NCBI GenBank assembly: GCA_052327205.1
Contig: CM126202.1
Span: 393,700,001-393,764,000, forward strand
Direction: 5' to 3'
Source of the DNA: Somniosus microcephalus
Lineage: Eukaryota
Length of the DNA stretch: 64,000 nt
Part shown: in pieces, positions 2,405 through 53,965 of the stretch
How positions within the stretch are numbered: the stretch's first letter is position 1
Layout: each line of letters opens with the position of its first letter
Program-made: the position numbers and the translations under genes
The notes under the pieces: model-generated
What the model saw: only the letters and a program-made list of their open reading frames with translations
Databases searched by the model: none
What the model was told of the DNA's origin: nothing

Positions 2405-2717
2405 GTTTCACTAGTCTTGAGGTATCCAGACTATCTCTCTTTAATCTACCTTAACTTCCATGATCTCTCTCATTTTATGTCCTTATACTAATTATCCTTT
2501 AAATATTGTTGCAATTAATTTTGTTAAGCGAATTCTAAGTTCTATTCAGCATTATAATATGATATTTAATGATTTGAGCTTCACTTGCAGCCTGTAGCTG
2601 TTTGTTATCACAGCTTAGTCAAAACTGCGTTTGGCTGTCCCCGCAGCTGCATTCTGAACAAGTCTCAGCTTTTTAGTTACCCAGGAGTAATTATGGGTAC
2701 AGCTGTAATATTATTTG
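2405..2717 (-). repeat. 3' LTR fragment, left of the PLE insertion
   Basis: Near-identical to ~11945-12256. Confidence 0.85.
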
Positions 2718-4910
2718 TGATGTGGAGATGCTGGTGTTGGACTGGGGTGGACAATTGTGAGAAGTCACACAACACCAGGTTATAGTCCAACAGCTTTATT
2801 TGAAATCACAAGCTTTCGAAGCGCCGCTCCTTCGTCAGGTGAAGTGAAGAGATGCATATAGGCACAGCATATATAGTCAGAGAACACTGCCAGATGATTA
2901 CAGGTAATCTTTCTAACTGCCCTTTATCGCACCTCGGCAGAGAGATAATCACAGCAATCAAAGGTGTGGATGGTGTCCAAACAGATCAGTCAGGAAAACA
3001 TTACATCAAAGAACAATGAGGTGGGGTCACAAGGGGTCAAATGTTGCAGATGCTAGGGTCTGTATGAAAAACAAAAAACAATTTAAAAAAAAAATGTTGC
3101 TGCAAATCACAGCAGGCCCAGCCGCATCTGTGTAGAGAGAACAAGCCAACGACGACTCGAGTCTGGATGACTCCGTCAGGTGGGGTTACATGTAGCGTGA
3201 CATGAACCCAAGATCCTAGTTGAGGCCATACTCATGAGTGCGGAATTTGGCTATCAGTTTCTGCTCGACGATTTTGCGTTGTCGTGTGTCTCGAAGGCCG
3301 CCTTGGAGGATGCTTACCCGAAGATCGGAGGCTGAATGTCCTTGACTGCTGAAGTGTTCCCCGACTGGGAGGGAACACTCCTGCCTGGCGATTGTTGTGC
3401 AGTGTCCGTTCATCAGTTGTCGCAGTGTCTGCATGGTCTCGCTGATGTACCATGCTCCGGGGCATCCTTTCCTGCAATGTATGAGGTAGACAACGTTGGC
3501 CGAGTCACATGAGTATGTACCATGTACCTGGTGGGTGGTGTCCTCACGTGTGATGATGGTATCTGTGTTGATGATCTGGCATGTCTTGCAGAGGTTGCCG
3601 TGGCAGGGTTGTGTGGTGTCGTGGTCGCTGTTCTCCTGAAAGCTGGGTAATTTGCTGCGAACGATGGTCTGTTTGAGGTTAGGTGGCTGTTTGAAGGTGA
3701 GTAGTGGAGGCGTGGGGATGGCCTTAGCGAGGTGTTCGCCATCATCGATGACATGTTGACGGCTGCGAAGAACATGGCATAGTTTCTCCGCTCCGGGGAA
3801 GTACTGGACGACGAAGGGTACTCTGTTGGTTGTGTCCCGTGTTTGTCTTCTGAGGAGGTCTATGCGATTTCTCGCTGTGGCCCGTCGGAACTGTCGACCG
3901 ATGAGTCGAGCGTCATATCCCGTTCTTACGAGGGCATCTTTCATCATCTGTAGGTGTCCATCGCGTTCCTTCTTGTCTGAGCAGATCCTGTGTATTCGCA
4001 GGGCTTGTCCATAGGGGATGGCTTCTTTAACATGGTTAGGGTGGAAGCTGGAGAAGTGGAGCATCGTGAGGTTGTCCGTGGGCTTGCGGTAGAGTGAAGT
4101 GCTGAGGTGTCCGTCTTTGATGGAGATTCGTGTGTCCAAGAATGAAACCGATTCTGAGGAGTAGTCCATGGTGAGTTTGATGGTGGGATGGAACTTGTTG
4201 ATGTTATCATGTAGTCTTTTCAGTGATTCTTCGCCGTAGGTCCATAGGAAGAAAATGTCGTCGATGTATCTGGTGTATAGCGTTGGTTGGAGGTCCTGTG
4301 CAGCGAAGAAGTCTTGCTCGAACTTGTGCATGAAGATGTTGGAGTATTGGGGTGCGAATTTGGTCCCCGTGGCTGTTCCGTGTGTTTGGGTAAAGAACTG
4401 GTTGTCGAAGGTGAAGACATTGTGGTCCAGGATGAAGCGGATGAGTTGTAGGATGGCGTCTGGAGATTAGCTGTTGTTGGTGTTGAGTACTGAGGCTGTC
4501 GCAGCAATGCCGTTATCGTGGGGGATACTGGTGTAGAGTGCCGAGACGTCCATCGTGGCGAGGAGTGTTCCTGGTTCAACTGGTCCGTGGGTGCTGAGTT
4601 TCTGTAAGAAGTCTGTAGTGTCGCGACAGAAGCTGGGGGTTCCCTGTACGATGGGTTTCAGGATGCCCTCGACGTATCCAGAGAGGTTCGCACACAGGGT
4701 TCCATTGCCTGATACGATAGGACATCCGGGTGTGTTGGATTTGTGTATCTTTGGGAGGCAGTAGAAGTCTCCCATGCAGGGAGTACGTGGGATGAGAGCG
4801 CATAGGGGGCTTTGAAGGTCTGGATCGAAGGTCTTGATCAGTCTGTTGAGTTGGCGGGTGTGTTCCTTGGTTGGATCTGCGGGTAACTGTCTGTAGTGTT
4901 CCTGGTTGTC
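2718..4910 (-). mobile_element. Penelope-like element (Neptune-like), left inverted arm, 5'-truncated
   Basis: ORFs 4467-4967 and 3216-4331 contain YCLPKIHK, DVSALYTSIP, RYIDDIF, the Cys linker PCHGNLCKTC and a GIY-YIG domain (VVYLIHC...WYISET). Confidence 0.95.
2806..2842 (-). ncRNA. Minimal type I hammerhead ribozyme motif in the PLE pseudo-LTR
   Basis: TCAC-CTGACGA-A-GGAGC ggc GCTTC-GAAA-GC-TT-GTGA: intact core boxes, stems I and II, and palindromic AAGCTT in place of stem III. Confidence 0.8.
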
Positions 4911-7623
4911 CCCCAGTACCACGGTTGAAACCACAGGGAAGTCCATCGTCAACTTCTCCGACCACACCCTTCAACCAGACGAAATCGAAGTTCTCAGCCG
5001 AGGGCTCAATTTCTGCCCCACCACCAAAATGGACCCCATCGGTCTCGCGGCAGACACAGAGGAATTTATCAGGAGAATGAGGCTCCGGGAATTCTTCTAC
5101 AAATCCCAAGATGTCAGCAGCGAACCCAATGAGACAATCAATGATCCAGAACAGCAGACAGAGGGATCCGCAGTGCAGCAGCCGAAGAAGAAAGAGTCAA
5201 ATTGGACCCCTCCGGAGGGTCACTGCCTAAGCTTGACATGTATGCTCAAGCTGTCAGGAGATGCATCAACGCCAGATTCATCAGCCGTACTCACATGACA
5301 GTCCAGAATGTCACCCGAGCACAACGCAACGCCATCCACGCTCACAAGACCAACCACAACATCACAACATCGTCATCAAACCAGCAGACAAAGGAGGAGC
5401 CATCGTCATACAGAACAGAATGGACTATTGCAAAGAAGCATACCGACAACTGGACAACCAGGAACACTACAGGCAGTTACCCGCAGATCCGACCAAAGAA
5501 CACACCCGCCAACTCAACAGACTGATCCAGACCTTCGATCCAGACCTTCAAAGCACCCTACGCGCTCTCATCCCATGTACTCCCCACGTGGGAGACTTCT
5601 ACTGCCTCCCAAAGATACACAAAGCCAACACACCCTTACGTCCTATCGTATCAGGCAACGGAACCCTGTGTGAGAACCTCTCTGGATACGTCGAGGGCAT
5701 CCTGAAACCCATCGTACAGGGAACCCCCAGCTTCTGTCGCGACACTACAGACTTCTTACAGAAACTCAGCACCCACGGACCAGTTGAACCAGGAACACTC
5801 CTCGCCACGATGGACGTCTCGGCACTCTACACCAGTATCCCCCACGATGATGGCATCGCTGCGACAGCCTCAGTACTCAACACCAACAACAGCCAATCTC
5901 CAGACGCCATCCTACAACTCATCCGCTTCATCCTGGACCACAATGTCTTCACCTTCGACAACCAGTTCTTTACCCAAACACACGGAACAGCCATGGGGAC
6001 CAAATTCGCACCCCAATACGCCAACATCTTCATGCACAAGTTCGAGCAAGACTTCTTCGCTGCACAGGACCTCCAACCAACGCTATACACCAGATACATC
6101 AACGACATTTTCTTTCTATGGACCCACGGCGAAGAATCACTGAAAAGACTACACGATAACATCAACAAGTTCCATCCCACCATCAAACTCACCATGGACT
6201 ACTCCTCAGAATCGGTTTCATTCTTGGACACATGAATCTCCATCAAAGACGGACACCTCAGCACTTCACTCTACCGCAAGCCCATGGACAACCTCACGAT
6301 GCTCCACTTCTCCAGCTTCCACCCTAACCACGTTAAAGAAGCCATCCCCTATGGACAAACCCTGCGAATACACAGGATCTGCTCAGACAAGGAGGAACGC
6401 AATGGACACCTACAGATGCTGAAAGACACCCTCGTAAGAATGGGATATGACGCTCGACTCATCGATCGACAGTTCCGACGAGCCACAGCGAAAAATCGCA
6501 TAGACCTCCTCAAAAGACAAACACGGAACACAACCAACAGAGTACCCTTCGTCGTCCAGTACTTCCCCGGAGCGGAGAAACTATGCCATGTTCTTCGCAG
6601 CCTTCAACATGTCATCGATGATGACGAACACCTCGCTAAGGCCATCCCCACGCCTCCACTACTCGCCTTCAAACAGCCGCCTAACCTCAAACAGACCATC
6701 GTTCGCAGCAAATTACCCAGCTTTCAGGAGAACAGCGACCACGACACCACACAACCCTGCCACGGCAACCTCTGCAAGACAAGCCAGATCATGAACACAG
6801 ATACCATCATCACACGTGAGGACACCACCCACCAGGTACATGGTACATACTCATGTGACTCGACCAACATTGTCTACCTTATACGTTGCAGGAAAGGATG
6901 CCCCGGAGCATGGTACATCGGCGAGACCATGCAGACACTGCGACAATGGATGAACGGACACCGCACAACAATCGCCAGGCAGGAGTGTTCCCTCCCAGTC
7001 GGGGAACACTTCAGCAGTCAAGGACATTCAGCCTCCGATCTTCGGGTAAGCATCCTCCAAGGCAGCCTTCGAGACACACAACAACGCAAAATCGTCGAGC
7101 AGAAACTGATAGCCAAGTTCTGTACTCATGAGAATGGCCTCAACCAGGATCTTGGGTTCATGTCACACTACATGTAACCCCACCTGACGTAGAGTCATCC
7201 AGGCTCACGTCGTCGTTGGCTTGTTCTCTCTATACAGACGCGGCCGGACCTGCTGTGATTTCCAGCAACTATTTTTTTTTTTTTAATTACTTTTTGTTTG
7301 TTTTTTGTTTTTCATACAGACCCCAGCATCTGCAACATTTGACCCCTTGTGGCCCCACCTCATTGTTCTTTGATGTAATGTTTTCCTGACTGACCTGTTT
7401 GGACACCATCCACACCTTTGATCGCTGTGATTATCTCTCTGCCGAGGTACGATAAAGGGCAGTTAGAAAGATTACCTGTAATCATCTGGCAGTGTTCTCT
7501 GACTATATATGCTGTGCCTATATGCATCTCTTCACTTCACCTGACGAAGGAGCAGCGTTCCGAAAGCTTGTGATTTCAAATAAAGCTGTTGAACTATAAC
7601 CTGGTGTTGTGTGACTTCTCACA
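4911..7623 (+). mobile_element. Penelope-like element (Neptune-like), right arm, disrupted ORF
   Basis: ORF pieces 4906-5298 (VLSRGLNFCP), 5261-6235 (IKPADKGG, RT) and 6284-7177 (GIY-YIG IVYLIRC...WYIGET). An in-frame TGA lies at 6233 and frameshifts lie near 5230-5370. Confidence 0.95.
7537..7573 (+). ncRNA. Minimal type I hammerhead ribozyme motif in the PLE pseudo-LTR
   Basis: TCAC-CTGACGA-A-GGAGC agc GTTCC-GAAA-GC-TT-GTGA. Confidence 0.8.
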
Positions 7624-7713
7624 GTAATATTATTTGGTCAATGACTACACTTGAATTTATACATATATGATTCTTGTCTACTAAATATCTCTAAATATCA
7701 GCCTTTCATACCA
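7624..7713 (-). repeat. 3' LTR fragment, right of the PLE insertion, including the TG start
   Basis: Matches 12244-12308. The minus strand starts TGGTATG right after the purine tract. Confidence 0.75.
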
Positions 7714-10700
7714 GTTCCCACCTTGAGGATGAAATACTTTAAACATTGATTCCTCGACTACTTCAATCTATTCTCTGACAAGCGTTGCTGCAAATTGGAG
7801 TCCTTTAATTGAGGGGAACAGAGCGCTTCTCAAATTAGGTTTTATCCCCCTTTTCATTATAGGCCTGGGTGCTAACTATGACACTCACAGGTGCTGCCTG
7901 CCTATCCTCATGGATGAGGGACATCCCGGGTCTCCTCAACCATCATGTCGGCCGTGCTGATATGTCTTGCCTTCTAGTGCATCCCAGTCTATCATTTGTC
8001 CTCCGCCTGCTGCTTCTATTGCTGCATCATACGATCTGACCCCTTACTTAAATTCAATTCACTGTTCCGGTGGTCCAATTCTGCCCCGCCTGGGCTATCT
8101 TCTGTTTCTTCTATCTTTCCTGCTCTTACCCCGCCTGGGGTCTCCTCTACGTTGCTTCGGATCTTCTCTTTCGGTGTGCTCAATTAATTTGTTAGTGCTG
8201 GTTAGTCATAGGCATGAGTACACAATTGGCTTATGCATCAAAGTCTTAGTACATAGGTTACATATATCAAATACACTATCATTACAAGTTGGAGAACTAC
8301 CAGAGCGTGTGAAATAATATGAACCTAAGGGGGTGCTCATATATTAAGCCCAATATTCCACCAGTGTGAGTTGTCCTCTGCTGTCAATTTCAATATCCAT
8401 TCTCGAGTTGTCTTGCTCCAAAACATAAAAATGCTTTAGGGAGGAGTTCAGTCGCATCACAAGCTCACTGAAACCCTCAGACAACAGGGGAATGTAGTAT
8501 CCGAATTGTGCCACATAATTGTGCAGCTCATACTTAAGTATCTCATTTACTGTCAGTTTCACTTGAGCATAGGTTTTGATATTGAGTAAAACATGTTGGT
8601 GATGGGACAGGTCCTGTTAGACCCGTAAAACATGGTAGTTGCGGTAGTAGGGACACAGGAGGCACCACCAAAACCACCTCATACTGGATTCATACTGGTT
8701 TTTCCCACGCTTTGTCATCTACAAAACACAATTATTACAGTTACAAGTTAAATTCAGTCTTGCAATCATTTCACGTGACATTACAGTTTAACATCTAATC
8801 AACAAATCATGGACTTAAAAGATTCTCCAGATCTCTCTTTTACTCGTATCCATCTTGTGGATAATTCTTGCTAAACATGATTTCTCCTTAGCCCTCAATT
8901 GTCCCAATCCAAATTCCATGTAACTCTCCACTTCAACTTCAATTTCAATCCCTCTAACAGGTACCAGTGTGTTTAACTCTATTCTGATTGTTTCATTAAT
9001 TAGATAGTTTCTCGATGGAGTATGTGCCAATGCTTTAAAAGTTGTCTCACTCTCCTGAGCCACATTAACCATTTCATGTCTTGCTGTTGTCAATTAACTG
9101 AGCATGTCTGAGACGCGTTCTTCAGTGCAAATTCACCACGCATTTCCAGATGGTAATTGCTTCATACGTAACAAATCACATTTGCACACTCATATCGGTA
9201 TCTCCAAATCATGCCACACAGGCCATCCGATACAAGCCTTTCTCGGGCTTTCAGGTGATCTTATCAAAAGATTGTCTGGAGGTCTTTGTTCATCTTCCAC
9301 CGTATGGTTCTGATGTCTTGGATAGAGGCCGGACTATAAAATTCAGTTTTCTTAAAAGGTTCATTATAGGCAGGGACACAAATGTCTCCAAGAGAAAGCT
9401 ATCAATTTACTATTCTTAACTACACTTTACTGACTTTCACTAGAAAGTTTGGAAAATTCTCAATTGGTGGTGTAATTCTCCTGTTTCTATCTCACACCCT
9501 CAACCACTTCCTCTCTCTATTTTACACATCCCATTAATTACCACTCATATCTCATTCATGAGCCCTGGAGGAACTTTACTGTCCAGTATAATATTTAAGA
9601 TTGAAAACAGATCAAGCATTCTCACTCGGTCCAAGTTATTAACACTTTTATTATTATTATTTTAGAGGATCTTTTATTTTCCCAAAAGTAACCCAACATA
9701 GTGCCTGAGTCCATTTTGTTATTTCAAAATTATCCCAAAAGCCAAACAGCAGTACTGTTAAACTGACAGGTTTTGTCAATGTTCAATTTCATTTCTATCA
9801 ATTTATCTTCCATTTCCAATTTCAGAAACAAATGATTCCCAGGCTAGGTGGCTTACACAGTGTTTTAACATTAGAGACAGAAGTGCTGCAATTAGTTTAC
9901 AAGGTAACTTCCATGTAACAAAAGAAAGAAGAGAATACATTGTGAGTCTGCTTAGAGTTAATTTATCAAATCATAATTTTCCTTCTGTCACGCTGGGGAA
10001 ATATTAACTTAAAATTAAGAAACTTAAATATAATAACATCCAATATCTTTAAATTTCATACTAAAGTTGTTGCTTGGTGAATTTAAACAGCTGTCAGTGG
10101 AAAGGGTTAACTCTTTTGCAGGTTTTTAAGAAGGTGGAGTGAAACATTGTCAGGCGCATGTAATTGCGTCACTTCACGTAAATTTAAAAAACTTTCCCGA
10201 TCGAAAAAGACAGTTGTGTTTTCACACTTTAACTAAACACAAACAGAACAGCTAAAACAAAATAAAATAGCACATGCTTGTAGAAAACAGTAAATTACAT
10301 CATATTTCTTATTGTCCTTTCTTCAGATGCCTTTCCAAAATACTGTAAAAACATTGAATACAACTGGAGAAAAATTAGTTTTTCACATTTAAACAAATCA
10401 AATCAAACTGCTTTGGAAGATTTCACCATAGCAACCACAACTCCAAGGTTAAATCTTAGACTGAAACTTAATCTTTTGTTAAACAAACTTTTTGTTGTTC
10501 TTCTCAGTTTTTCCATGCCAGCTTAACTTAAATTGTAGTTCAACGTTTTTTTTTCTAATTCTGGGTGCACAATCTTATTCGCACATTCTTAAAACTTCCA
10601 AAATCCAAGACAAGACAAAAGTGTTAAATGCTTTTAACACAGAGAAGTGGGTGGAGCTAAAACAAACATTACAGAATCTTTCTTTTAATGACAGACTTTC

Positions 10701-10953
10701 AGACAAAAGGAATATTGTAACTTCTTAAACATTTATAGTCAGGAAAACTTTCACACTTTAACACACACTTTCACACAAACTGAAATTCCAGCATTTTCTT
10801 GAGGTTCCTTTCACTCAGCAAATCTTGTGTTTTATTTGTCTCGGCACAGACGTTAATAGCTTCCATGTCGGTAAAACTTTAGTTTTTTCTCTTTTTAAAT
10901 CGGCGTCTCAGCAGATTTTCCTGGCTTTCCAAATCTCTGTTTTTTTCCTTCCT

Positions 10954-11232
10954 TTACTGAGTTTTCAGATTGGTTAGCCTGCAAATTAGATCTTTTTCCT
11001 TCTTTATCTCTCCCTCTCTCTCCTGCAATTTATGCTTAACCACCTGACTATGTTTCTCTCTTAACTCGTGTTTTTTCTGATTCACACGTTCCGGAATAAA
11101 GTTTATCACTTCTTCAAAGGGGACTCGGTCTCCTTTGATTAAACGTTCCATCAATAATATCTGTACTTCCTCTGCACAGGTGCCTCTGTCTAACTTACTC
11201 TTATATGCATTAACAAAACTTTCACTAGCCAT
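10954..11232 (-). pseudogene. First internal ORF of the ERV-like element, possible gag N-terminal remnant (charged, coiled-coil-like)
   Basis: ATG-initiated 92-aa ORF about 160 nt downstream of the PBS. Assigned by position only; no diagnostic motif. Confidence 0.4.
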
Positions 11233-11394
11233 TTGGTGATTTTCCTAACAGACCTCGAACATCAATAACTATCGGTGTGCAATTCACGGGCACTCCCCAC
11301 TCCCCATGGGGTATATCCCTCTTCAAGAGCAGCAGCTGATCAGGAAGCTACTTTTGAGGTCCAAGCTAATACACAATACTAGCTGCTTTGTCTT

Positions 11395-11412
11395 GTCACA
11401 TCTGGGTCGCCA
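11395..11412 (-). promoter_or_regulatory. Primer-binding site complementary to tRNA-Arg(CCG)-type 3' end
   Basis: Minus strand reads TGGCGACCCAGATGTGAC, a 17/18 match to the complement of the vertebrate tRNA-Arg 3' end GTCCCATCTGGGTCGCCA (tRNA sequence recalled from memory). Confidence 0.8.
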
Positions 11413-11415
11413 ATT

Positions 11416-12309
11416 TGTAAGGTCTTAATGATCCCTGAGTTCTTGGACAAGACACCAATAGGCAGCAGCTAGTATGTTTGAGCAATAGATCAAGATTTAT
11501 TAAGCTTACAGCGTAATTAATACTTAATATTAGGTGATAGTTTTAATGAGTAGCTCACAGCCCTTGGTCTCTGAAATCTCTCGGACACAGATGACGTCGT
11601 CTTAAGTCTATTCCTTTGTTCTTGCAGTATGGCTGTATAAAGTTGTTCTTTGAGTATCGAGGTTTTAACCCTTTTCTTATCAAAAGTTGGTTTGGCCAGT
11701 GTCCATATATGGTCTTTAACAAAATCACTTTTTTTAATTGGTTCTAATGGTCAAAATACCATTGTCACTCAGGTTAAGGCTAGTAACCTGGCCACTCCTT
11801 TTCCAGCATGTTTCCACTAACTCTGCCCCGCTGTCGTGTTATCTTGTTTATAGTTTTTCACACCATTGGAATTTATCATATCTCTTTCACTTCATAGCCT
11901 CCCTGGTACAAGGCCTTTATACCAAGGGCCCATATCAGCGCTGTTTTACCAGTCTTGAGGTATCCAGACTATCTCACTTTAATCTACCAGATAAATACCT
12001 TAACTTCCATGATCTCTCTCATTTTATGCCCTTATACTAATTATCCTTTAAATATTGTTGCAATTAGTTTTGTTAAGCGAATTCTAAATTCTATTCAGCA
12101 TTATAATGTTATTTAATGATTTGACCTTCACTTGCAGCCTGTAGCTGCTTGTTATCACAGCTTAGTCAAAACTGTGTTTGGCTGTCCCCGCAGCTGCATT
12201 CTGAACAAGTCTTAGCTTTTTAGTTACCCAGGAGTAATTATGGGTAATATTATTTGGTCAATGGCTACACTTGAAGTTATACATATATGATTCTTGTCTA
12301 CTAAATATT
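11416..12309 (-). repeat. 5' LTR of the ERV-like element (outer ~25 bp missing)
   Basis: Ends ...TTACA on the minus strand, 3 nt before the PBS. Contains AATAAA (minus) at 11496-11501 and a CArG box CCATATATGG at 11703-11712. Homologous to 2411-2717 and 7637-7688. Confidence 0.8.
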
Positions 12310-15140: not shown

Positions 15141-15725
15141 AGCCTATTTTTCCTCAGAGACTGATTTAATAAAATATCTCCATTTAGCTCACCCCTCAGA
15201 AACCATCTCCATTTCGTGTTTTATGCTAGTTTCACTTGGAGAAAATTAAAACAGTTTGAAAATGAGTGAATCCCGATCACTACTCTGTTAATTGTTCATT
15301 AACAGGTACCCAACAAGCAAATAAAAGCCTTTAATACCAAATCTGTGCATTAAAGTGGGCAACAATTATAAATGCACAAGTAATTTCAATAGAGGAAAAA
15401 CAGAAAAGAATGGAGGTAGTAGCAACAACAACTTGTATTTATATTGTGGGGGACTACGGTCTCCCGCGTAAAGAAATAGGCAACACAGCGAGCTACAAGA
15501 AATAGGTCTTTACTCCAACTCTCAATACAGTACTGAATTCGTGAAGCCCGCGAACCTGTGATGACACACGGATTAGTCACCTGCTGGAACCTGGTTGGTT
15601 TTCCTTCTATCAGCAGCAGGCAAGTCTGAACGTGCCTTATTCCTCTCAGCTTGCAACTGTCTTGCGGGGGGAGGGGAATACAGCAGTTAAAAGGGGATTA
15701 TACAGGTTTATCTACATACACACAG

Positions 15726-18700
15726 TGATGTAAGAAAAAGGAGGCTTACCATCAAGTAACTTTAAAGTAAGCTTTAAGTAACTTATAAACACACTATATA
15801 CACAAGAGAGGTCTTTACCATGCCTCTGGTAGAAGCCTCTTACAATACTGAACAGACCAGTATTTATACCAGTCCAACAGGAAGTGACACATGACAGGAA
15901 GTGAGGTATGTACACAGTTCATAGTTCATAGTTCACAGTTCACAGTAAGTGATGACATAACTTCCCGGAAGTTATTATTTTTATCACATTCTTCCCTCCT
16001 GCAGGTTTAGGAGGCTGTGGTCTACCTTTTGGTCCGCAGCCGCCGAACAAGGAAGAGTCGCACCCGTTTGGATTCCCGTCGTAGAGGGTCGCTGGTCCGC
16101 TTACATGCGGTTGGCCATTGGCCAGAGTCCGTGTGGCCTGGATTGCCCTGTGAAGGGTCGGGGAGATCATGGCTTCGAGTACGAGCCCCAATAGGTTCAA
16201 AGTCAGACTGCCTCTGTTCAGAGGGAGGTGCAGAGCTGGTCTGTGGCAGACCAGTACTTTCATGCGTGGTACTGGGAGGGTCGCAACCTTGAGCACGGGG
16301 TTCTACCGGCACCAAGCTAGTTGGTGTCCGATCAGGATCCTGGAGAGGGGTACCCGATAGGTCCCAAGAGTTTCCTGGTGAAATGCCATCACCCGATGTC
16401 CCACTAGGTCCTGGTGGGCAGGGAGCCAGATCCCGTAATGATACGGTAGATTCTCGGCCGTCGGAATATCGTATGTTTGCATAGGTGGGGTTGGCATCGG
16501 TTAGTTCGACCTCGTCTACAAGAGGGTCATTTTTAGACGTCCGAACGTATCTTCGGAGTAATACAGGTCCAGGAGTAGTTAGCCATGACGGGAGTGATGT
16601 CCCATGAGATGAGCGACGCTGGAATCCAAAGAACCGCTCATGAGGTGTAGTATTTGTGGCTGTAGAAAGCAGGGACCGTATAGAGTGCAATGCATCCGGA
16701 AGCACTGTTTCCCATTGCTGGTCTGGTAGGCCCCGAGATCTTAAAGCGAGACGTACGGAATTCCAGATGATACCGTTATACCTCTCTACCTGCCCATTTC
16801 CGATGGGATGGTATGGTGTTGTTTTGCTTGTAGCAATTCCCCGTTCTGCGAGGTAGTCCTTGAGTTCCCTTGACATAAAGGATGGACCCCGATCTGAGTG
16901 AATATAAGCCGGCATGCCACAGAGAGAAAATACCTGCTCAAGGCAGCAGATTACTGTGGACGCCAGCATATTGGAGCAGGGGAAGGCAAACGGAAAACGT
17001 GAATATTCGTCGATCATGGCGAGCAAATATGTGTTCCGAGTTGAAGAGGGCACTGGGCCCTTAAAATCGATGCTAAGTTGTTGCATCGGTTGGGTTGCAT
17101 GTATGAGTATACCATCTGAGGGGCGGAAGAACTGAGGTTTTAATTCCGCACAAAGCCGGCATTCTGAGCATATTTTCTTTACATCTCCAGTGGAAAAAGG
17201 GAGATTCCGTGATCGTACGAAATGTAGCATGCGCGTAACGCCAGGATGGCACAAACCATTGTGGACATCCATGAGGGTGGAGGATGACATAGTGGAGCAG
17301 AATGCCCGTGTGAGGGTGTCCGGGGCCACATTCTCCTTGCCAGGCCGATAGAGAATGGTATAACCAAAAGAGACCAGTTCCATCCTCCAAAGTTGTATTT
17401 TATTATTCTTAATTTTGGTTCGTTTTCGATTATCGAGCATGAAGGCGACTGATCGTTGGTCCGTGATCAATGTAAAGTGCTGGCGAGCTAGAAAATGGTT
17501 CCACTTCCGTACTGCCTCTATGATGGCTGTGGCTTCTTTCTCAACCGGAGGATAATGTAGCTCGGCACCTTGTAAGGTCCTGGACATAAATGCTACAGGA
17601 CGACCTTCCTGATTCAGAGTAGCCGAGATCGCCACCTCCGAGGCATCACATTCAACCACGAAAGGGAGATTCTCATCAATGGAGTGAAGAGCCGCTTTCT
17701 CCAACTGTTTTTTTGAGAAGGTTAAAGGCTGCAACAGCCGCTGTTCCCAGTGGAAATGATCTAGCATGCAGCAAGGGTTGGATTTTGTCCGAAAAATGAG
17801 GAATCCATTTAGCGTAGTATGCAAACAGACCGAGAGCCCGACGTAAAGAAGCCGGATTCTTAGGTGACGGGAGCTCTTGGAGCGGGCGAAGTCTTTCTGG
17901 GTCTGGCTTAATGATACCATTGCCTACGCAGTAGCCAAGGATGTTGATGGTCGGTTGCGACTCAACAGATTTGGATTCATTCAGGGTCAAATTACGGCGA
18001 TGGAGGGCATCCCGAAATTTTTGGAGGTTGGAGTCGTGTTCCTGTTGATCGTGACCTGCAATGGTAATGTTATCAAGATAGGGAAAAGTGTCCCTTAGGT
18101 TTTCCTGCTTAACCAGGCCATCCATTGCCCGTTGAAAGACAGCCACTCCATTAGTAACCCCGAATGGGAGGCGACGAAATTGGTACAGCCGTCCATTAGC
18201 CTCAAAGGCTGTGTACTGCTTATCTGAGACCTTCAAGGGTAACTGATGATAGGCACTTTTTAAATCGTAAGTTGAGAACACTTTGTATTCGGCCAGTTTA
18301 TTAACCATATCATCAATGCGTGGCAATGGGTAGGCGTCCAAGTCGGTATATTGATTGATGGTTTGTGAATAATCGATGCATAGTCGCTGTTTGTGAGGTT
18401 TTAGAGGGTTCTTGACAATGACGACTTGAGCCCGCCAGGGCGACGAACATGGTTCAATGATATCCTCTGCTAGAAGTCGAGAGATTTCAGCCGCAATAAA
18501 AGATTGGTCTTCCTGATTAAAGCGCCGCGATTTCGTTATTATCGGTTGGCATTGAGGCGGAATACTGGCAAATAATGAGGGTTCATCAAGTGAAGCTGCT
18601 GATAATGCACAAAATGGTAATTTAGACGGTATATTAGAAATAGTAAGTCCGGGTTTGGATCCACCAAACTCAATGGGGAGTTTCTTATGCTGTTTTTGGA

Positions 18701-20297
18701 AGTCCAGTCCTAAGAGGAGATCACTACATAAGTCCTTGAGCACCGAAAGTCGGGTGGAGGGATACATACGACCATGAAGTGTCATATCAACAACACAAAA
18801 GCCGGAGATTCTGGTATTAAGTGATGACTGGGCCATCGCAATTGCCTGGTCCGATGGGAAGACATGTAGTTTCAATTTCGCAACAATCTGTTCCTTAATG
18901 AAACTATCAGTACTTCCTGAGTCAATTAAGGCATCCAAGGTATGCCCTTTAATTGAAATTTTTGTGGCAGCATGAGACAGGTTCTGTGGGCAAGCAGCTG
19001 TAATTGGTGTCGTTGCACAGAGAGTGGCTAAAACTCTCGGTGTGCTTCTTCGGGAGAGAGCTCGAGAGGAAGCTTGATAGGTCCTAGCTGGAGCATCTTG
19101 ATAGGCCCTAATTGGGGCAGTTCGGTAGGCCTTAGCTGGATTGGCCCTCGTAGAGGCCCTTGATAGGCAAACTTTAGCAAAGTGTCCTTTTTTCCCGCAA
19201 TAACTGCAGATTGCATTGCGAGCAGGGCAGGTTTTCCTAGGGTGAAAAGCATCTCCACAAAAGAAGCATTCCTTCCTAGATTGCCAAGAGGCTGCTAAAG
19301 TGGGGTCGTCCTCCTCTTCTTCATCAGAATTATCAGAATTAGATTCCCCCATGATAGGGTTCACCTGAGACCGCTTGAATTGTCTGGTTGCAGCTACAGC
19401 AGCAGATCGAGATCTGGGCAGCTGATAGAGGTCTGCATTTCTCTTTGCCAAATCCAGTGAACAAGCTAGGTCAAAAGCTTTTTGTAGCTCAAGTGTTTTA
19501 CTTTCTAGTAGACGCTGGCGTATAAATGGAGAGGCAATCCCGCAGATGAAAGCATCACGAATCATTTCTTGGCGGTACAGCTCAGCTGAGGCTGCCTGAA
19601 AGTTACAATCTACGCTGAGCCTGCGAAGTTCTTGCAGGAATTCGTCAATTGATTCCCCTGGCCCTTGTCGGGCTGTGGCCAGTAGATGTCTAGCATAGAC
19701 CTCATTTGGGGTCTTCGCATACAGTTTCTTAAGTGCCCGAATCACCTCTTCGTAATTATCCCAGTCATCAACATATTCGAACACTTTTGGGGTCACATAA
19801 TTGATAAGTATCTTCAATCTAGCAGGAGCATCCGCTTCACATTCATCCAGAAAATTCTCAAAAGTACGGTACCAATGCTTCCATACCCTGCCAGCTGCTG
19901 GTGCATTCGGGTCCAAGTCCAGACGAATAGGTCTAAGGATTTTCTCCATGATGGGTGGTTCCCTGGATCCTTAATTCCGAGTTTGTCCGAAGGTCTAGTA
20001 TTCGTGAGTGTAAATACTAAGTTACTTAAATTGATGTAAGAAAAAGGAGGCTTACCATCAAGTAACTTTAAAGTAAGCTTTAAGTAACTTATAAACACAC
20101 TATATACAAGAGAGGTCTTTACCATGCCTCTGGTAGAAGCCTCTTACAATACTGAACAGACCAGTATTTATACCAGTCCAACAGGAAGTGACACATGACA
20201 GGAAGTGAGGTATGTACACAGTTCATAGTTCATAGTTCACAGTTCACAGTTCACAGGAAGTGATGACATAACTTCCCGGAAGTTATTATTTTTATCA
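15726..20297 (-). mobile_element. Full-length young Ty3/Gypsy LTR retrotransposon
   Basis: LTRs at 15726-15986 and 20032-20297 (TGAT...ATCA) are nearly identical. TSD CACAG at 15721-15725 and 20298-20302. Polypurine tract AGGAGGGAAGAATG. Domain order is PR-RT-RH-IN. Confidence 0.97.
16022..19949 (-). CDS. gag-pol polyprotein with a single frameshift in the A7 run at ~17708-17714
   Basis: Two zinc knuckles (CFFCGDAFHPRKTC, CSYCGKKGHFAKVC), protease LIDSGS, RT DLKSAY/LPFG/YLDN, RNase H CDAS, and integrase HHCC plus DDE. Confidence 0.93.
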
Positions 20298-20312
20298 CAC
20301 AGTGTTTCCCCA

Positions 20313-26247: not shown

Positions 26248-28248
26248 CATAAGAACATAAGAAATAGGAGCCCCTCGAGCCTGCTCCACCATGCAATAAG
26301 ATCATGGCTGATCCAATCTTGTCCTCAACACCACTTTCCTGCTCTCTCCCCATACCTCTTGACTCCCTTGAAGTTCCAATGTCTGTCTATCTCAGCCTTG
26401 AATATATTCAGTGACTCCACCTCCACAGCTCTCCGGGGTAGAGAATTCCAAAGATTCACGACCCTCAGAGAAGAAATTCCTTCTCATCTCTGTCATAAAT
26501 GGGCGACTCCTTATTCTGAAACTATGCCCCCTAGTTCTAGACACCCCCTACTAGGGGAAACATCCTCTCAGCATCCACCCTGTCAATCCCCCTCCGAATC
26601 TCTTATGTTTCAATAAGATCACCTCTCATTCTTCTAAACTCCAATGAGTATAGGCCCAATCTGCTCAACCTTTCTTCATAAGTCAATCCCCTTCATCTCG
26701 GGAATCAACCTAGTGAACCTTCTCTGTACTGCCTCCAGTGCAAGTATATCCTTCCTTAAATATGGAGATCAAAACTGTACACAGTACTTCCGGTGTGGTC
26801 TCACCAGCGCCCTGTAAAGTTGCACCAAAACTTTCCTATTTTTATACTCCATACCCCTTGCAATAAAGGCCAACATTCCATTAGCCTTCCTAATTACTTG
26901 CTGTACCTGCATGCTAACCTTGTTTCATGTACTCGGACCCCCAGATCCCCTTGTACCGCAGCATTTTGTAATCTCACTCCATTTAAATAATTGCTTTTTC
27001 ATTCTTCCTTCCAAAGTGGATAACCTCACATTTTCCCACATTGTACTCCATCTGCCAAATTTTTGCCCACTCACTTAACCTATCTATATCCCTTTGCAGA
27101 TTCTTTGCGTCCTCCTCACAACTTGCTAACCCCCCTATCTTTGTATCATCAGCAAATTTGGCTACAGTACACTCGGTCCCTTCATCCAAGTCATTAATAT
27201 AGATTGTAAACAGTTGAGGCCCCAGCACTGATCCTTGTGGCACCCCACTAGTCACTGTTTGCCAACCTGTAAATGACCCATTTATCCCGACTCTGTTAGT
27301 TAGCCAATCCCCTGTCCATGCGAAAATATTATCTGCAACCCTATGCGCTCTTACCTTATGCAGTAACCTTTTATGTGGCACCTTATTGAATGCCTTCTGG
27401 AAATCCAAATACACCACATCCACAGGTTCCCCTTTATCCACCCTGTTTGTTACATCCTCAAAGAACCCTAGCAAATTTGTCAAACACGATTTCCCTTTCA
27501 TAAAACCATGTTGCCTCTGCTTGATTGTCTTATGATTTTCTAAATGTCCTGCTATTACCTCCTTAATAATGGACTCCAGCATTTTCCCAATGATAGATGT
27601 TAGGCTAACTGGCCTATAGTTTCCTGCTTTCTGTCTCCCTCCTTTCTTGAATAGTGGCATTACATTTGCGGTTTTCCAATCCGCTGGGACCTCTCCAGAA
27701 TCCAGGGAATTTTGGTAGATTACAACCAATGCATCCACTATCTCTGCAGCCACTTTTAAGACCCTAGGATACAGGTCATCAGGTCCAAGGGACTTGTTGG
27801 CCTTTAGCCCCATTAGTTTGCCTAGTATTTTTTCTCTAGTGATAGAGATTGTTTTAAGTTCCTCCCTCCCTATAGCCCCTTGATTATTATTATTGGGATG
27901 TTTTTAGTGTCTTCTACCGTGAAGACCGATCCAAAATAATTGTTTAGAGTCTCTGCCATTTCTCTATTTCCCATTATTAATTCCCCAGTCTCATTCTCTA
28001 AGGGACCAAAGTTTACTTTAGCTACTCTCTTCCTTTTTATATACCTGAAAAAGCTATTACTGTCTGTTTTTATATTATTTGCTAGTTTACTCTCATACTC
28101 TATCTTCTCCCTCTTTATAATTTTTTTAGTCATCCTTTGCTGGTTTCTAAAAATTTTCCAATCCTCTGGCCTACCACTAATCCTCGCAACATTGTATGCC
28201 TTTTCTTTCAATTTGATACCATCCTTAACTTCCTTCGTTATCCAGTGG
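26248..28248 (-). mobile_element. CR1-clade LINE, 5'-truncated
   Basis: ORFs 27870-28322 (part) and 26983-27813 carry RT motifs (GVPQGSVLGP, FADDT). (CATAAGAA)n tail. Confidence 0.95.
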
Positions 28249-36479: not shown

Positions 36480-39460
36480 AACAAAAGTGGCAGTCAGAGA
36501 AATCAACGGTTTAAATCAAACGTGGCCACAGTAAATAATAATTCTAATAGGTCTAAGAGCGTTAAAAAAAACAAGCCTGAAGGCTTTGTATCTTAATGCG
36601 AGGAGCATTTGTAATAAGGTGGATGAATTGGCTGAGCAAATAGAGGTAAACGAATATGATTTGGTTGGGATTACGGAAACGTGGCTCGAGGATGGCCAAG
36701 ACTGGGAACTCAACATCCAGGGGTATTCGATATTCAGGAAAGATAGGCAAAAAGGAAAGGGAGGAGGGGTAGCATTACTGGTTAAAGAAGGGATTAACAC
36801 AATTGTAATGAAGGATATTCGCTCTGATGATGTGGAATCTGTATGGGTAGAATTGAGAAATACTAAGGGGGGAAAAAAACATTAGTGGGAGTGGTATATA
36901 GACCTCCAAACAGTAAGGCGGAGGTTGGGGATGGCATTAAAAGGGAAATTAAAGAAGCGTGCAATAAGGGCACAGCAGTCATCATGGGTGACTTTAATCT
37001 ATATATAGATTGGGCTAACCAAATTAGTAACAATACTGTGGAGGAGGAATTCCTGGAGTGTTTATGGGATGGTTTCCTGGACCAATATGCCGAGGAACCA
37101 ACCAGAGATCAGGCCATCTTAGACTGGGTATTATGTAACGAGAAAGGATTAATTAGCAATCTTGTTGTACGAGGCCCTTTGGGTCGGAGCGATCATAATA
37201 TGATCGAATTCTTCATTAAGATGGAGAATGAAGTAGTTGACTCAGAAACTAGGGTCCTCAATTTAAATAAAGGAAACTACGATGGTCTGAGGAGCGAGTT
37301 GGGTAGGATTGATTGGGGAATGGCACTCAAAGGGTTGACGGTGGATAGGCAATGGCAAACATTCAAAGGCCGAATGGATGAACTACAGAAGTTGTTCATC
37401 CCAGTTTGGCATAAAAATAAAACAAAAAAGGTGACTCAACCGTGGCTAACAAGGGAAATTAGAGATAGCTTAAGATCCAAGGAGAGGACATACAAATTGG
37501 CCAGAAAAAGCAATAATCCTGAGGATTGGGAGCAGTTTAGGATTCAACAAAGGAGGACAAAGGGATTAATTAAGAAAGGGGAAATAGAATATGAGAGTAA
37601 GCTTTCAGGGAACATAAAAACTGACTGTAAAAGCTTTTATAGATATGTAAAGAGAAAAAGACTGGTGAAGCCAAGCGTAGGTCCCTTGCAGTCAGAATCG
37701 GGGGAATTTATAATGGGGAACAAAGAAATGGCAGACCAACTAAATACATATTTTGGTTCTGTCTTCACAAAGGAGGACACAAATAACCTCCCAGAGATGC
37801 CGGGGAACATAGGGTCTGATGAAAGGGAGGAACTGAAAGAAATTAGTATTTGTAGGGAAATGGTGTTAGGGAAATTGATGGGATTGAAGGCCGATAAATC
37901 CCCAGGGCCTGATAATCTACATCCTAGGGTAATTAAGGAAGTGGCCCTAGAAATAGCAGATGCATTGCTTGTCATCTTCCAAAATTCGATAGACTCTGGA
38001 ACAGTACCCATGGATTGGAGGGTAGCTAATGTTACCCCACTATTCAAAAAAGGTGGTAGAGAAAAAGTGGGGAATTATAGACCGGTAAGCCTGACATCGG
38101 TAGTGGGGAAAATGCTAGAGTCCATTATAAAAGATGTAATAGCAGAGCACTTGGAAAGCAGTGACGGGATCGGACAAAGTCAACATGGATTTACAAAAGG
38201 TAAATCCTGCTTGACTAATCTACTGGAATTTTTTGAGGATGCAACTGGTAAAATAGATAAGGGAGAATCAGTGGATGTGGTGTATTTGGACTTTCAGAAG
38301 GCTTTCGATAAGGTCCCGCATAAGAGATTAGCGTGCAAAATTAAGGCACATGGGATTGGGGGCACGGTATTGACTTGGATAGAGAACTGGTTGGCGGACA
38401 GAAAGCAGAGTTGGAATAAGCGGGTCGTTTTCCGAGTGGCAGGCAGTGACTAGTGGGGTACCGCAAGGATCAGTCCTAGGACCCCAGCTGTTCACAATAT
38501 ATATTAATGAGCTGGACGAGGGAATTGGATGTAATATCTCCAAATTTGCAGACACAAAGCTGGGTGGGAGGGTATGCTGTGAGGAGGATGTCATGAAACT
38601 CCAGTACGATTTGGACAGGTTGGGTGATTGGGCAGAAACATGGCAAATGCACTGTAATGTGGATAAATGTGAGGTTATCCACTTTGGTGGCAATAACAGG
38701 AAGGCAGATTATTTGAATGGCAATAGATTAGGAGAAGGGGAAGTGCAAAGAGACCTGGGTGTTCTTGTGCACCAGTCGCTGAAGGTAAGCATGCAGGTGC
38801 AGCAGGCGGTTAAGAAGGCAAATGGTATGTTGGCCTTCGTAGCAAGAGGGTTCGAGTACAAGAACAAGGATGTCTTGCTGCAGTTGTACAGGGCCTTGGT
38901 GAGACCGCACCTTGAGTATTGTGTGCAGTTTTGGTCACCTTACCTGAGGAAGGATGTTCTTGCCATGGAGGGAGTGCAGCGAAGATTCACCAGGCTGATA
39001 CCTGGGATGGCAGGAATGACGTATGAGGAGAGATTGTGTCGATTGGGCTTATACTCACTGGAGTTTAGAAGATTGAGAGGGGATCTCATCGAAACCTATA
39101 AAATTCTGTCTGGTCTGGACAGACTAGATGCAGAAAGGATGTTTCTGATGGCCGGGGAGTCCAGAACCAGGGATCATAGTCTAAGGATAAGGGGTAAGCC
39201 ATTTAGGACTGAAATGAGGAGGAATTTCTTCACCCAGAGAGTGGTGAACCTGTGGAATTCTCTGCCACAGAGGGCAGTGGAGGCCAGTTCATTAAATATA
39301 TTCAAGAAGGAGTTGGATATATTTCTTAAGGCTAAAGGGATCAAGGGATATGGGGAGAAGGCAGGGACAGGGTACTGAATTTGGATGATCAGCCATGATC
39401 TCATTGACTGGCGGGGCAGGCTCGAATGGCCTACTCCTGCTCCTATCTTCTATGTTTCTA
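36480..39460 (+). mobile_element. CR1-clade LINE with an almost complete ORF2 (AP endonuclease + RT), frameshifted
   Basis: YLNARSI, GITETWL, YRPP, GDFN, SDHN and RT motifs across ORFs 36586-36885, 36885-38453 and 38446-39378. The catalytic FADD is reduced to FAD. Confidence 0.96.
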
Positions 39461-51087: not shown

Positions 51088-53965
51088 CATAACATAAGAA
51101 CATAAATAGGAGCAGGCGTAGGCCATTCAACCCTTTGAGCCTGCTCCGCCATTCAATGAGATCATGGCTGATCTTCTGCCTCAACTCCATTCACTGGCCC
51201 TATCGCCATATCCCTTGATGCCCTTACTAGTCAGAAATCTATTGACTTCTGTTTTGAATATACCCAATGACTGAACCTCCACAGCCCTCTGGGGTAGAGA
51301 ATTCCAAAGATTCACCACCCTCTGTGTGAAGACATTTCTTCTCCTCCTCTCAGTCCTGAATGGTCTACCCTTTATCTTGAGGCTGTGGCCCCTGGTTCTA
51401 GACTCCCCAGCCAAGGGAAACATTCTCCCAGCATCCATCTTATCAAGCCCTGTAATAATTTTGTATGCTTCAACGAGATCCCCTCTCATTCTTCTGAATT
51501 CAAGAGAATACAGGCCTAGTCGACCCAATCTCTCCTCCATATGACAGTCTTGCCATCCCAGGAATCGGTCTGGTGAATCTTCGTTGCACTCCCTCTATGG
51601 CAAGTATATCCTTCCTTAGGTAAGGAGACCAAAATTGTACACCGTACTCCAGGTGTGGTCTCACCAAGGCCCTATATAATTGGAGTAAGGCTTCTTTACT
51701 CCTGTACTCAAATCCTCTTGTAATGAAGGCCAGCATACAATTTGCCTTACTAATGCCTTGCTGCACCTGCACATTCACTTTCAGTGACTCATGTACAAGG
51801 ACACCCAGGTCTCTTTGAGCATCTGCATTCCCCAATCTTTCACCATTTAGGAAATACTCTGGCGTTCTGTTTTTTCTACCAAAGTGGCTAACTTCACATT
51901 TATCCACATTATATTCTATCTGCCATGTTCTCGCCCACTCACTGAGCCTGTCGAGATCCCCTGGAAGCCTCTTCACATCCTCTTTGACACTGACACTGCC
52001 ACCTAGCTTTGTATCGTCAGCAAATTTGGAAATGTTACATTTAGTCCCCTCATCCAAATCATTGATATAGATTGTGAATAGCTGGGGCCCAAGCACCGAT
52101 CCTTGTGTTACCCCACTAGTCGCAGCCTGCCATCCTGAAAAAGACCCGTTTATCCCTACTCTTTGTTTTCTGTCTGTTAACCAATTCTCAATCCAAGCTA
52201 GTATATTACCCCCAATTCAATGGGCCCTAATTTTGTTCACCAACCTCTTGTGTGGAACCTTATTGAAGGCCTTCTGAAAATCCAGATACACCACATCTAC
52301 CAGTTCCCCTTTGTCTACTCCACTAGTTACATCCTCAAAAAACTCCAATAGGTTTGTCAAACAGGATTTCCCTTTCATAAATCCATGTTGACTCTGCCCA
52401 ATCTTACTATTAGTTTCTAAGTGCCCAGTTATTGCATCCTTTATAATAGATTCCAGCATTTTCCCAACTACTGATGTGAGGCTAACAGGTCTGTAGTTCC
52501 CCGTTTTCTCTCTCCCTCCTTTCTTAAATAGCGGGGTTACATTTGCAATCCTCCAATCTGCAGGGACCATTCCAGAATCTCTAGAATTTTGGAAGATGAC
52601 AACCAATGCGTCCACTATTCCAATGGCCACCTCTTTCAAAACCCTAGGATGTAGGTCATCCAGTCCTTGGGATTTATCGACTTTTAGTCCCATTAATTTT
52701 GCTAGTACTGTTTTTTTGTTAATAATTACTTTAAGTTCCTCATTCTCGTCACACCCTTGGTTTTCTCGTATTTATGGGAGTTTTTTTGTGTCTTCCTCCG
52801 TGAAGACAGAAACAAAGTATTTATTTAATTTCTCTGCCATTTCCTCATTCCCCATTATAAATTCTCCCGTCTCTGACTGTAAAGGACCTACATTTACCTT
52901 CGCCAGTCTTTTCCTTTTCACATACCTATAGAAGCTTTTACAATCTGTTTTTATATTTTTTGCTAGTTTGTGCTCATTTTCCCTTTCTTTATCAATTTCT
53001 TGGTCCCCCTTTGCTGATTTCTAAAAAGATCCCAATCCTCAGGCTGACTGCTTTTTCTGGCAACTTTATAAGCTTCCTCTTTTGACTTAATACTAGCTTT
53101 AATTTCTTTTGTTAGCCATGGTTGGATCACTTTTCCTTTTGGGTTTTTATGCCCTAGAGGAATATATGTTTGTTGCAAATTATGCATTATTTCCTTGAAT
53201 GTTAGCCATTGCATGTCCACCTTCATACCTTTTTAGTGTAGTCTCCCAATCTACCATGGCCAACTTGTCCCTCATACCCTTGTAGTTTCCTCTGTTTAGA
53301 TTGAAGACCTTAGTTTCAGATTGGACTACATCACACTCAAACTTCTGTAAAATTCAATCATATTATGGTCACTTGTCCCTAAAGGCCCATTTACCACAAG
53401 ATTATTGATTAGCCCTTTCTCATTACACAGTACCAGATCCAGAATAGCCTGTTCCCTGGTTGGTTCCTCCACACACGGTGGCATAGTGGTTAGCACTGTT
53501 GCCTCACAGCGCCAGGGACCCGGGTTCGAATCCGGCCTCGGGTGACTGTCTGTGTGGAGTTTGCACATTCTCCCCGTGTTTGCGTGGGTTTCCTCCGGGT
53601 GCTCCGGTTTCCTCCCACAGTCCAAAAATGTGCGGGTTAGGTTGATTGGCTATGATAAATTGACCCTTAGTGTTAGGGGGATTAAATACGTGGGGTTACG
53701 AGGATAGGGTGGGATATGTGTTGGTGTAGGGGTTACGGGGATCGGGTGGGATATGTGTCGGTGCAGGCTCGATGGGCCGAAATGGCCTCTATCTGCACTG
53801 TGGGGTTTCTGTGATTTCTGTGATACTGATCCAGGAAACCATATTGCGCACATTCCAAGAATTTGTCCTCCACACCATTAGTGGTAATTTGATTTGCCCA
53901 GTCAATATGTAGATTAAAGTCTCCCATGATTACCGTATTGCCCTTGTTACATGCACTTCTAATTT
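51088..53965 (-). mobile_element. CR1-clade LINE (endonuclease part + RT), interrupted by an HE1 SINE
   Basis: MGDFN, EEPTREQAILDL, SDHN, NYRPVSLTS and FADDT in ORF fragments across 51181-53927. Confidence 0.95.
53474..53823 (+). mobile_element. HE1-like V-SINE, full length
   Basis: Box A TGGCATAGTGG, box B GGTTCGAATCC, V-domain TCTGTGTGGAGTTTGCACATTCTCCCCGTG..., and a CR1-derived tail. Confidence 0.92.

Follow-up and report, generated by a model that had tools for sequence, protein, structure and literature searches.

Tf1 and Tf2 of Schizosaccharomyces pombe, Tj1 and the Tf1/sushi elements carry a self-complementary primer site right past the 5′ LTR and have no tRNA site; the self-priming mechanism of Tf1 is treated in the available text of bioRxiv 10.1101/2022.12.06.519325 and PMC5341516. 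According to the accessible part of PMC6317226, self-priming has also been predicted for Tcn1 and for TAR copia elements, with a complement of at least 10 bp lying 0–5 bp past the LTR. An unexplained priming type has been proposed for Skipper, self-priming being given for Tf1/sushi, in the passages available from PMC6317226, PMC3601003, PMC6934838, PMC5445492 and PMC5006619. As far as the available text of these papers goes, self-priming of gypsy elements is tied to the Tf1/sushi chromoviruses, and PMC3601003 asks whether hairpin priming preceded tRNA priming. In the literature that we searched, which lay outside subscription journals and Repbase Reports, no animal gypsy clade apart from the chromoviruses is described as self-priming. 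Some Repbase entries reportedly call animal Gypsy families self-primed. Here we report on a Gypsy element that shares the self-complementary site with these systems and lies in a window of 64,000 nt (the whole stretch of Somniosus microcephalus DNA that was analysed).

Results

Structure of the element and its family

The element is a young Ty3/gypsy LTR retrotransposon on the minus strand of the window, from 20299 to 15726; all its features are given on this strand. It has TG...CA LTRs, a target-site duplication (TSD), a polypurine tract and the order gag–protease–reverse transcriptase (RT)–RNase H–integrase, and the solved structure closest to its RT is that of Ty3 RT (E = 9e-38). The 5′ LTR (20032..20299, 268 bp, TG...CA) had been recognised, with its self-complementary site, in a preliminary description of this DNA, but its start had to be corrected to 20299, where the family begins with TGTG, as seen in 20 sister copies. 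It ends in ...CATCA at 20032 and is followed by a single A at 20031 and by the 13-nt primer-binding site (20018..20030), which reads TTTAAGTAACTTA; as described earlier, no TGG stands directly past the LTR. The 3′ LTR (15726..15988) is 263 bp long, and two indels, of 7 and 2 nt, set it apart from the 5′ LTR. It adjoins a polypurine tract (15989..16000) that is identical in 29 of 33 full-length copies, the other four not being parsed. The 5-bp TSD, CTGTG (15721..15725), matches 20302–20298, and both can be moved by 2 nt without loss of the match. One LTR end of the window insertion is 2 nt short relative to the TSD (20302–20298, 15727–15721); since the LTR starts with TGTG, the inner TG/CA may have been used at this insertion.

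The coding region comprises gag with two CCHC knuckles, protease and RT (17676..19949, a frame that ends early in the window copy), followed by RNase H and an integrase with zinc finger and DDE core (16022..17923). The single gag-pol frame of the window copy is broken between RT and RNase H, which leaves ORFs of 764 and 633 aa from stop to stop. The two-knuckle gag of the preliminary description was borne out, both Cx2Cx4Hx4C knuckles being located (19268–19227 and 19208–19167), and so was the lack of a chromodomain: Pfam finds none in the two window ORFs, and neither a chromodomain nor SH3_Tf2-1 was matched in ten proteins (these two ORFs and eight full-length relatives). In RT, the motif YLDN stands in place of YxDD (18080–18069), as it does in 43 of 55 relatives, and it occurs despite the recent activity of the family. 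U3 (20283–20182) holds a 7-nt tandem repeat whose copy number varies, three CACTTCCTG motifs and one palindromic ACTTCCGGGAAGT motif; we take the last two kinds to be ETS-like sites.

Searches of the 6.45 Gb assembly revealed that the family is young and abundant. All 150 listed RT matches scored 100% identical, and by a hand count about two thirds of these sister copies have one open frame of 1314–1316 aa. Twenty full-length copies differ by 0–4 substitutions between their LTRs, 18 of the 20 are flanked by a 5-bp TSD, and intact primer-site junctions of the family number over 3000. Elsewhere in the window, 2447–12308 holds Penelope-like RT and GIY-YIG-like ORFs (3216–4466 and 5237–7177, recognised by eye), repeats of 96–97% pair 2447–2699 with 11996–12246 and 7624 with 12244, and CR1/L2-like LINE fragments and repeated SINEs, also named by eye, occupy 121–1955, 26983–27903, 36867–39378 and 51500–52216.

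Complementarity between the primer site and the LTR

The 13-nt complement noted in the preliminary description was confirmed: 20030–20018 is the exact reverse complement of 20091–20079, a segment also present in the 3′ LTR. On the basis of this complement search and of the relatives described below, we refer to 20079..20091 as the predicted self-primer. Among 20,000 dinucleotide shuffles of the LTR, a complement of at least 13 nt to the site 0–3 nt past the LTR arose three times. Between the predicted primer and its site lies an R–U5 loop (20032..20078) with short predicted stems (20078–20073 with 20055–20050, or 20060–20051 with 20040–20032) that differ between the MFE and centroid structures; the central duplex is present in both (z = −2.8). 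When compared with a three-duplex "pretzel", the flanking stems lie within the LTR and change from one model to the other, and a short stem adjoining the duplex was seen by eye in many relatives.

RNA reads vary at 20085 and 20024, which are duplex partners. Genome-wide counts of exact junction patterns at one paired position gave 2522 A:T and 658 G:C copies (662 minus 4) and 13 mixed ones (nine A:C and four G:T), and the A:T and G:C copies stand for a single compensatory change that separates the subfamilies rather than for 658 of them. A second 9-mer in the LTR (20068–20060), which is able to pair with the site, does not track the A:T/G:C change. The 13 mixed-pair copies were fetched as candidate recombinants, but most look like single point changes; L249 has discordant LTRs, and L244 is a deletion.

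Conservation of the pairing in relatives

Relatives were collected as 86 loci from public contigs, 44 of them with a gag start and upstream DNA. Related proteins of ~1200–1230 aa were found in cnidarians, crustaceans, a nematode, a mollusc and a tunicate, and none among the viral contigs searched; members of this animal clade that occur in contigs classed as bacterial MAGs (L174–L179) are probably host contamination. The relatives keep the pairing of the two 13-mers with changed letters, as the covariation check in the preliminary description had envisaged. When no position was imposed on the primer site, the best duplex began in most cases one base past CA. When the register was fixed at CA+1, 34 of the 44 relatives had at least 11 Watson–Crick pairs with at most one mismatch, compared with 12 of 920 shuffles, and both entries from the same genome as the element also passed. 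Several of the ten relatives that failed (L032, L042, L045, L050, L052, L063, L064, L082, L084 and L109) look degraded or without an LTR. The fixed register is kept across RT identities of ~40–73%.

The passing entries contain 27 distinct LTR 11-mers, 25 from relatives and two from the own genome. At positions 4–9, on average 5.9 of 6 bases pair with the entry's own site versus 3.0 of 6 with the site of another family, a value reached by none of 20,000 permutations, which overstate independence: the 27 entries were selected for the duplex and include sister variants, and independent families are nearer 20. In these duplex-selected entries, positions 1–13 are paired in 24–27 entries and position 14 in 15; some relatives have duplexes of 15–19 bp, and TGG is found at the primer site in 0 of 27. 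Certain identities are kept beyond the needs of pairing, namely G at −10 in 25 entries, A at −11 in 21 and T at −13 in 24; these positions, which belong to a conserved T-W-A-G motif, may be read as an initiator.

Scars in genomic copies

Position +14 (20017), directly past the 13 nt of the primer site, is a recurrent site of A-rich substitution and insertion among copies, the window copy having the common G. We sampled 80 of the first 82 A:T junctions, skipping two tandem neighbours, and 30 G:C copies. The common GTA at +14/+15 was changed in 27 of the 80 A:T copies (ATA in 15, AATA in 6, AA in 3 and AAA, AAT and GA in one each), and +14 was changed in 4 of the 30 G:C copies, whereas the median minority count per site in the copies was 0; no CpG is present at +14. 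Four haplotypes carry the change, which has an r2 of 0.03–0.06 with five other variable sites, four of which are mutually linked (r2 0.85–1.0; 0.19–0.26 for the fifth). Some of the changes are surely inherited, yet not from one master. Runs of six junctions (G000:C2:283210696-283232177) and three junctions (G000:C1:214819208-214827868) spaced ~4.3 kb apart have the same +14 change throughout each run, and by analogy with the Tf1/Tf2 tandems described in the available text of PMC11042837 they are probable tandem arrays with common LTRs.

A pattern search for junctions with a displaced leader returned 155 matches, and nearly nine in ten of the 100 listed, as judged by eye, have one extra base directly past base 13 of the primer site and none elsewhere. 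The accessible part of PMC11042837 reports that Tf1 RT adds untemplated bases and that Tf1 cDNA retains a copy of the primer site. By analogy, the simplest cause of the +14 scar would be untemplated addition of A where the plus-strand copy of the primer ends. The scar would then set the primer length at 12–13 nt, or at 12 nt if the A at +13, present in 24 of 27 entries, was itself added. The deletion in L244, a jump from base 13 of the site into RT via a short shared word, fits the same end point.

One copy, L363, records a different event. Both of its LTRs lack the same 22 nt (−22 to −1), a gap that can be placed so as to end at the 3′ end of the duplex, and a 23–26-nt complement of the missing stretch stands behind the primer site and runs on into integrase sequence; the 5-bp duplication and the purine tract are intact. 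Because the deletion is in both LTRs, the change arose during reverse transcription. This one event is a sign that the primer site was templated by LTR RNA and that this RNA had been cut at 20079/20078. Taken together, the +14 scar and L363 point to priming, not to a mere hairpin. Two other candidate deletions, L364 and L369, proved instead to be insertions of other elements at +13/+14: in both copies a related element, GC-rich, ~700 bp long and with a short duplication, which we take to be possibly a TWA-targeting DNA transposon. L257, L366 and L367 were discarded, as they are not LTR junctions.

Start of the transcript

The preliminary description had placed the best TATA box at 20172–20165, and this holds: TATAAATA, 81 nt upstream of 20091, is the only perfect TATA and is kept in both subfamilies. 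Its corollary, a start ~50 nt upstream of the pairing segment, proved unsupported, since the +14 scar and a step in RNA depth point to a 5′ end at ~20090. RNA was taken from two runs (X7 and X8) whose species label is that of the best-matching DNA data, from an organism in which 0.70–0.79 of the sampled words occur. The depth of presumed-sense reads, the strandedness being inferred, falls from 137.5 to 99.5 across 20079–20096 in X8 and from 35 to 10 across 20073–20102 in X7; being random-primed and drawn from many copies, these reads weakly place the start at 20085–20096 and do not map it. In X7, 12 of 23 molecules, which may be duplicates, end at 20096, 5–6 nt upstream of the predicted start, and in X8 about 98 reads continue upstream, which may come from 5′, 3′ or solo LTRs alike. 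The only step near a start dictated by the upstream TATA (~20142) coincides with reads of the diverged subfamily that cease to align at 20141. A primer built by splicing was rejected: RNA reads have no joints over 20001–20180, and a contiguous complement needs none. The loose RNA-read ends listed include no poly(A) junction.

Self-priming could also take another form, in which the usual source of the primer is the 3′ LTR copy, the RNA ends pairing and the 3′ end being cut after ...AAA, or in which a longer leader starts at the upstream TATA. L363, where the 3′ copy looks as if it had been consumed, is in fact best explained by use of the 3′ rather than the 5′ LTR copy, although it is one event and the only such copy among the 100 listed of 155 matches. 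These variants would also suit the conservation of TATAAATA in both subfamilies, the presence of TATATAG at 20106–20100, 28 nt before 20078, and the 15–19 bp duplexes of some relatives. Against a start at ~20090 stands that the window element, unlike sushi, has no TATA 25–30 nt upstream of the predicted primer. Against the variants, TATA-like boxes occur in only 2 of 25 relative entries, the RNA depth steps above 20079, and the +14 change in the 80 copies is A-rich and never the T expected of a longer primer. We therefore regard these variants as unlikely, and a mechanism closer to that of Tf1 than the preliminary description feared is probable in view of the +14 scar and the RNA step.

Other roles for the duplex and other primers

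In 15 of 27 entries the last six paired bases are AATAAA or ATTAAA, so the duplex, which can form only at the 5′ LTR, might serve merely to hide a poly(A) signal there or act as a structural hairpin of the U5-IR type while another primer is used. Such a role needs no fixed CA+1 register and leaves both the +14 scar and L363 unexplained; moreover, the window family has CTTAAA, one relative has TGAAGA with a compensated partner, and no other primer site is visible. It is accordingly improbable.

An outside primer, such as a 12–13 nt host tRNA fragment or another small RNA annealing to the site, would also leave a scar where the primer site ends, and half-tRNA priming exists in copia lineages according to the available text of PMC6317226. 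Without TGG, the site does not match a mature tRNA 3′ end, and each of 27 different site sequences is matched by the LTR of the same element. An Rfam tRNA search returned 63 genes, those read being tRNA-Lys and tRNA-Cys only, and in this incomplete set the longest complement was 4 nt in six distinct genes; the exact 11-mer followed by a T-loop motif within 33 nt had 0 matches in the assembly. The tRNA match that could have overturned the preliminary proposal was thus not found among these Lys and Cys genes or with this one pattern, and we consider an outside primer very improbable. A tandem array of tRNA genes with ~1.6 kb spacing lies at G000:C24:42.9-43.2 Mb, those read being tRNA-Cys(GCA). 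Finally, that the complement is a functionless by-product of template switching at an inverted repeat is hardly credible: the sequence is AT-rich and hairpin switches can homogenise inverted repeats, but the register stays the same across the whole range of RT identities and the L363 deletion, being in both LTRs, arose during reverse transcription.

Discussion

We propose that the element primes itself in the manner of Tf1, with the first 12–13 nt of its own transcript, and that it does so as a member of a non-chromovirus animal clade; by sequence and by analogy with Tf1, we put the probability of this reading at roughly 0.75, and self-priming in any form is highly probable. The tRNA-independent self-priming suggested in the preliminary description remains the best reading, given that the complementarity is kept in relatives and that a thin screen produced no tRNA match. 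According to the model, the RNA would start at ~20090, at the conserved T-W-A-G motif read as an initiator and without a TATA at −30, and its 5′ end would fold onto the primer site. The RNA would be cut after ...AAA, between 20079 and 20078, probably by the element's RNase H as in Tf1. Strong-stop DNA would be copied up to this cut and then jump to the 3′ R, and plus-strand synthesis would copy the retained primer and add untemplated A's, so that a scar is left at +14 once the second jump is made. In relatives, the poly(A) hexamer would as a side effect be masked in the 5′ LTR only.

A broader reading, to which we give somewhat less than an even chance, is that a large animal Gypsy clade, extending from cnidarians to vertebrates and remote from the chromoviruses, evolved self-priming independently, that its 13-nt word acts as initiator, primer and poly(A) signal, that either LTR copy is usable, and that scars record the primer length (+14) and the cut site (L363), so that the chemistry of priming could be read from assemblies alone. 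If self-priming is widespread outside the chromoviruses, it is either a repeated invention or an older and wider trait, and such elements would be out of reach of silencing by tRNA 3′ fragments (PMC7472051). Annotation software that insists on a tRNA site will mis-score such elements. With the +14 scar, primer length could be measured without an experiment in any LTR family of high copy number, and the over 3000 junctions of this family lead to sharp predictions, namely a start near 20090 and a cut at 20079/20078.

As for the known systems, Tcn1 (plant chromoviruses) and TAR, Houba and Osr-1 (copia) are predicted self-primers, and the 13-nt complement one base past the LTR lies within the limits used to predict them; they belong to other lineages and hosts, whereas ours is an animal non-chromovirus gypsy element. 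An RT from the same genome (L228), which by one motif we take to be Mag-like, is 33% identical to that of the element. The Mag C-clade (SURL, Steamer) presumably shares with it a single ORF and a two-knuckle gag. Short LTRs are a further likeness, but a TGG site for tRNA-Leu is present in Steamer and in the C9/C10 branches, as the available text of PMC8905726 reports, in contrast to 0 of 27 entries in the clade studied here. The relatives, at ~1200–1230 aa and with a tunicate among them, may be compared with a further group. A candidate name for the clade is Cigr-1 of Ciona intestinalis, which reportedly has LTRs of 245 bp, one ORF of ~1210 aa and a gag resembling that of echinoderms. The Cigr-1 clade is named in the available text of PMC6238403, which gives no primer site; YLDN was not found in the papers and supplements searched (including the accessible parts of PMC8556966 and PMC6238403).

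The Tf1/sushi group remains the closest in mechanism. In the genome of our element, the sushi-type chromoviruses have CA, one base and then an 11-nt complement of their own LTR, which is the same CA+1 register, and most have a TATA-like box ~30 nt upstream of the primer; a single 11-nt self-primer is common to diverged sushi families (L180–L193, L238 and L239), while in the studied clade it varies by family. The +14 scar likewise fits the untemplated addition by Tf1 RT in the available text of PMC11042837. The RT of the element is 29–30% identical to that of sushi. For an RT tree, 67 rows were extracted, 62 were kept after short or stop-rich ones were dropped and 46 after 90% de-duplication; with midpoint rooting and outside rows labelled by features, the element fell in a clade of 41 rows (100/100) apart from the two sushi rows. 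The RT phylogeny called for earlier thus supports the separation, with the reservation that it includes only five outside rows and carries a long-branch warning. Unlike Tf1/sushi, the element has this separate RT branch, YLDN, no chromodomain or SH3_Tf2-1, a two-knuckle gag, LTRs of ~150–270 bp in its clade and no TATA at −30, and its duplex is of 12–13 bp or more versus 11, with a primer that differs from family to family and shares bases with a poly(A)-like hexamer. Judged by its sequence, the element works like Tf1/sushi, yet is not a member of that group.
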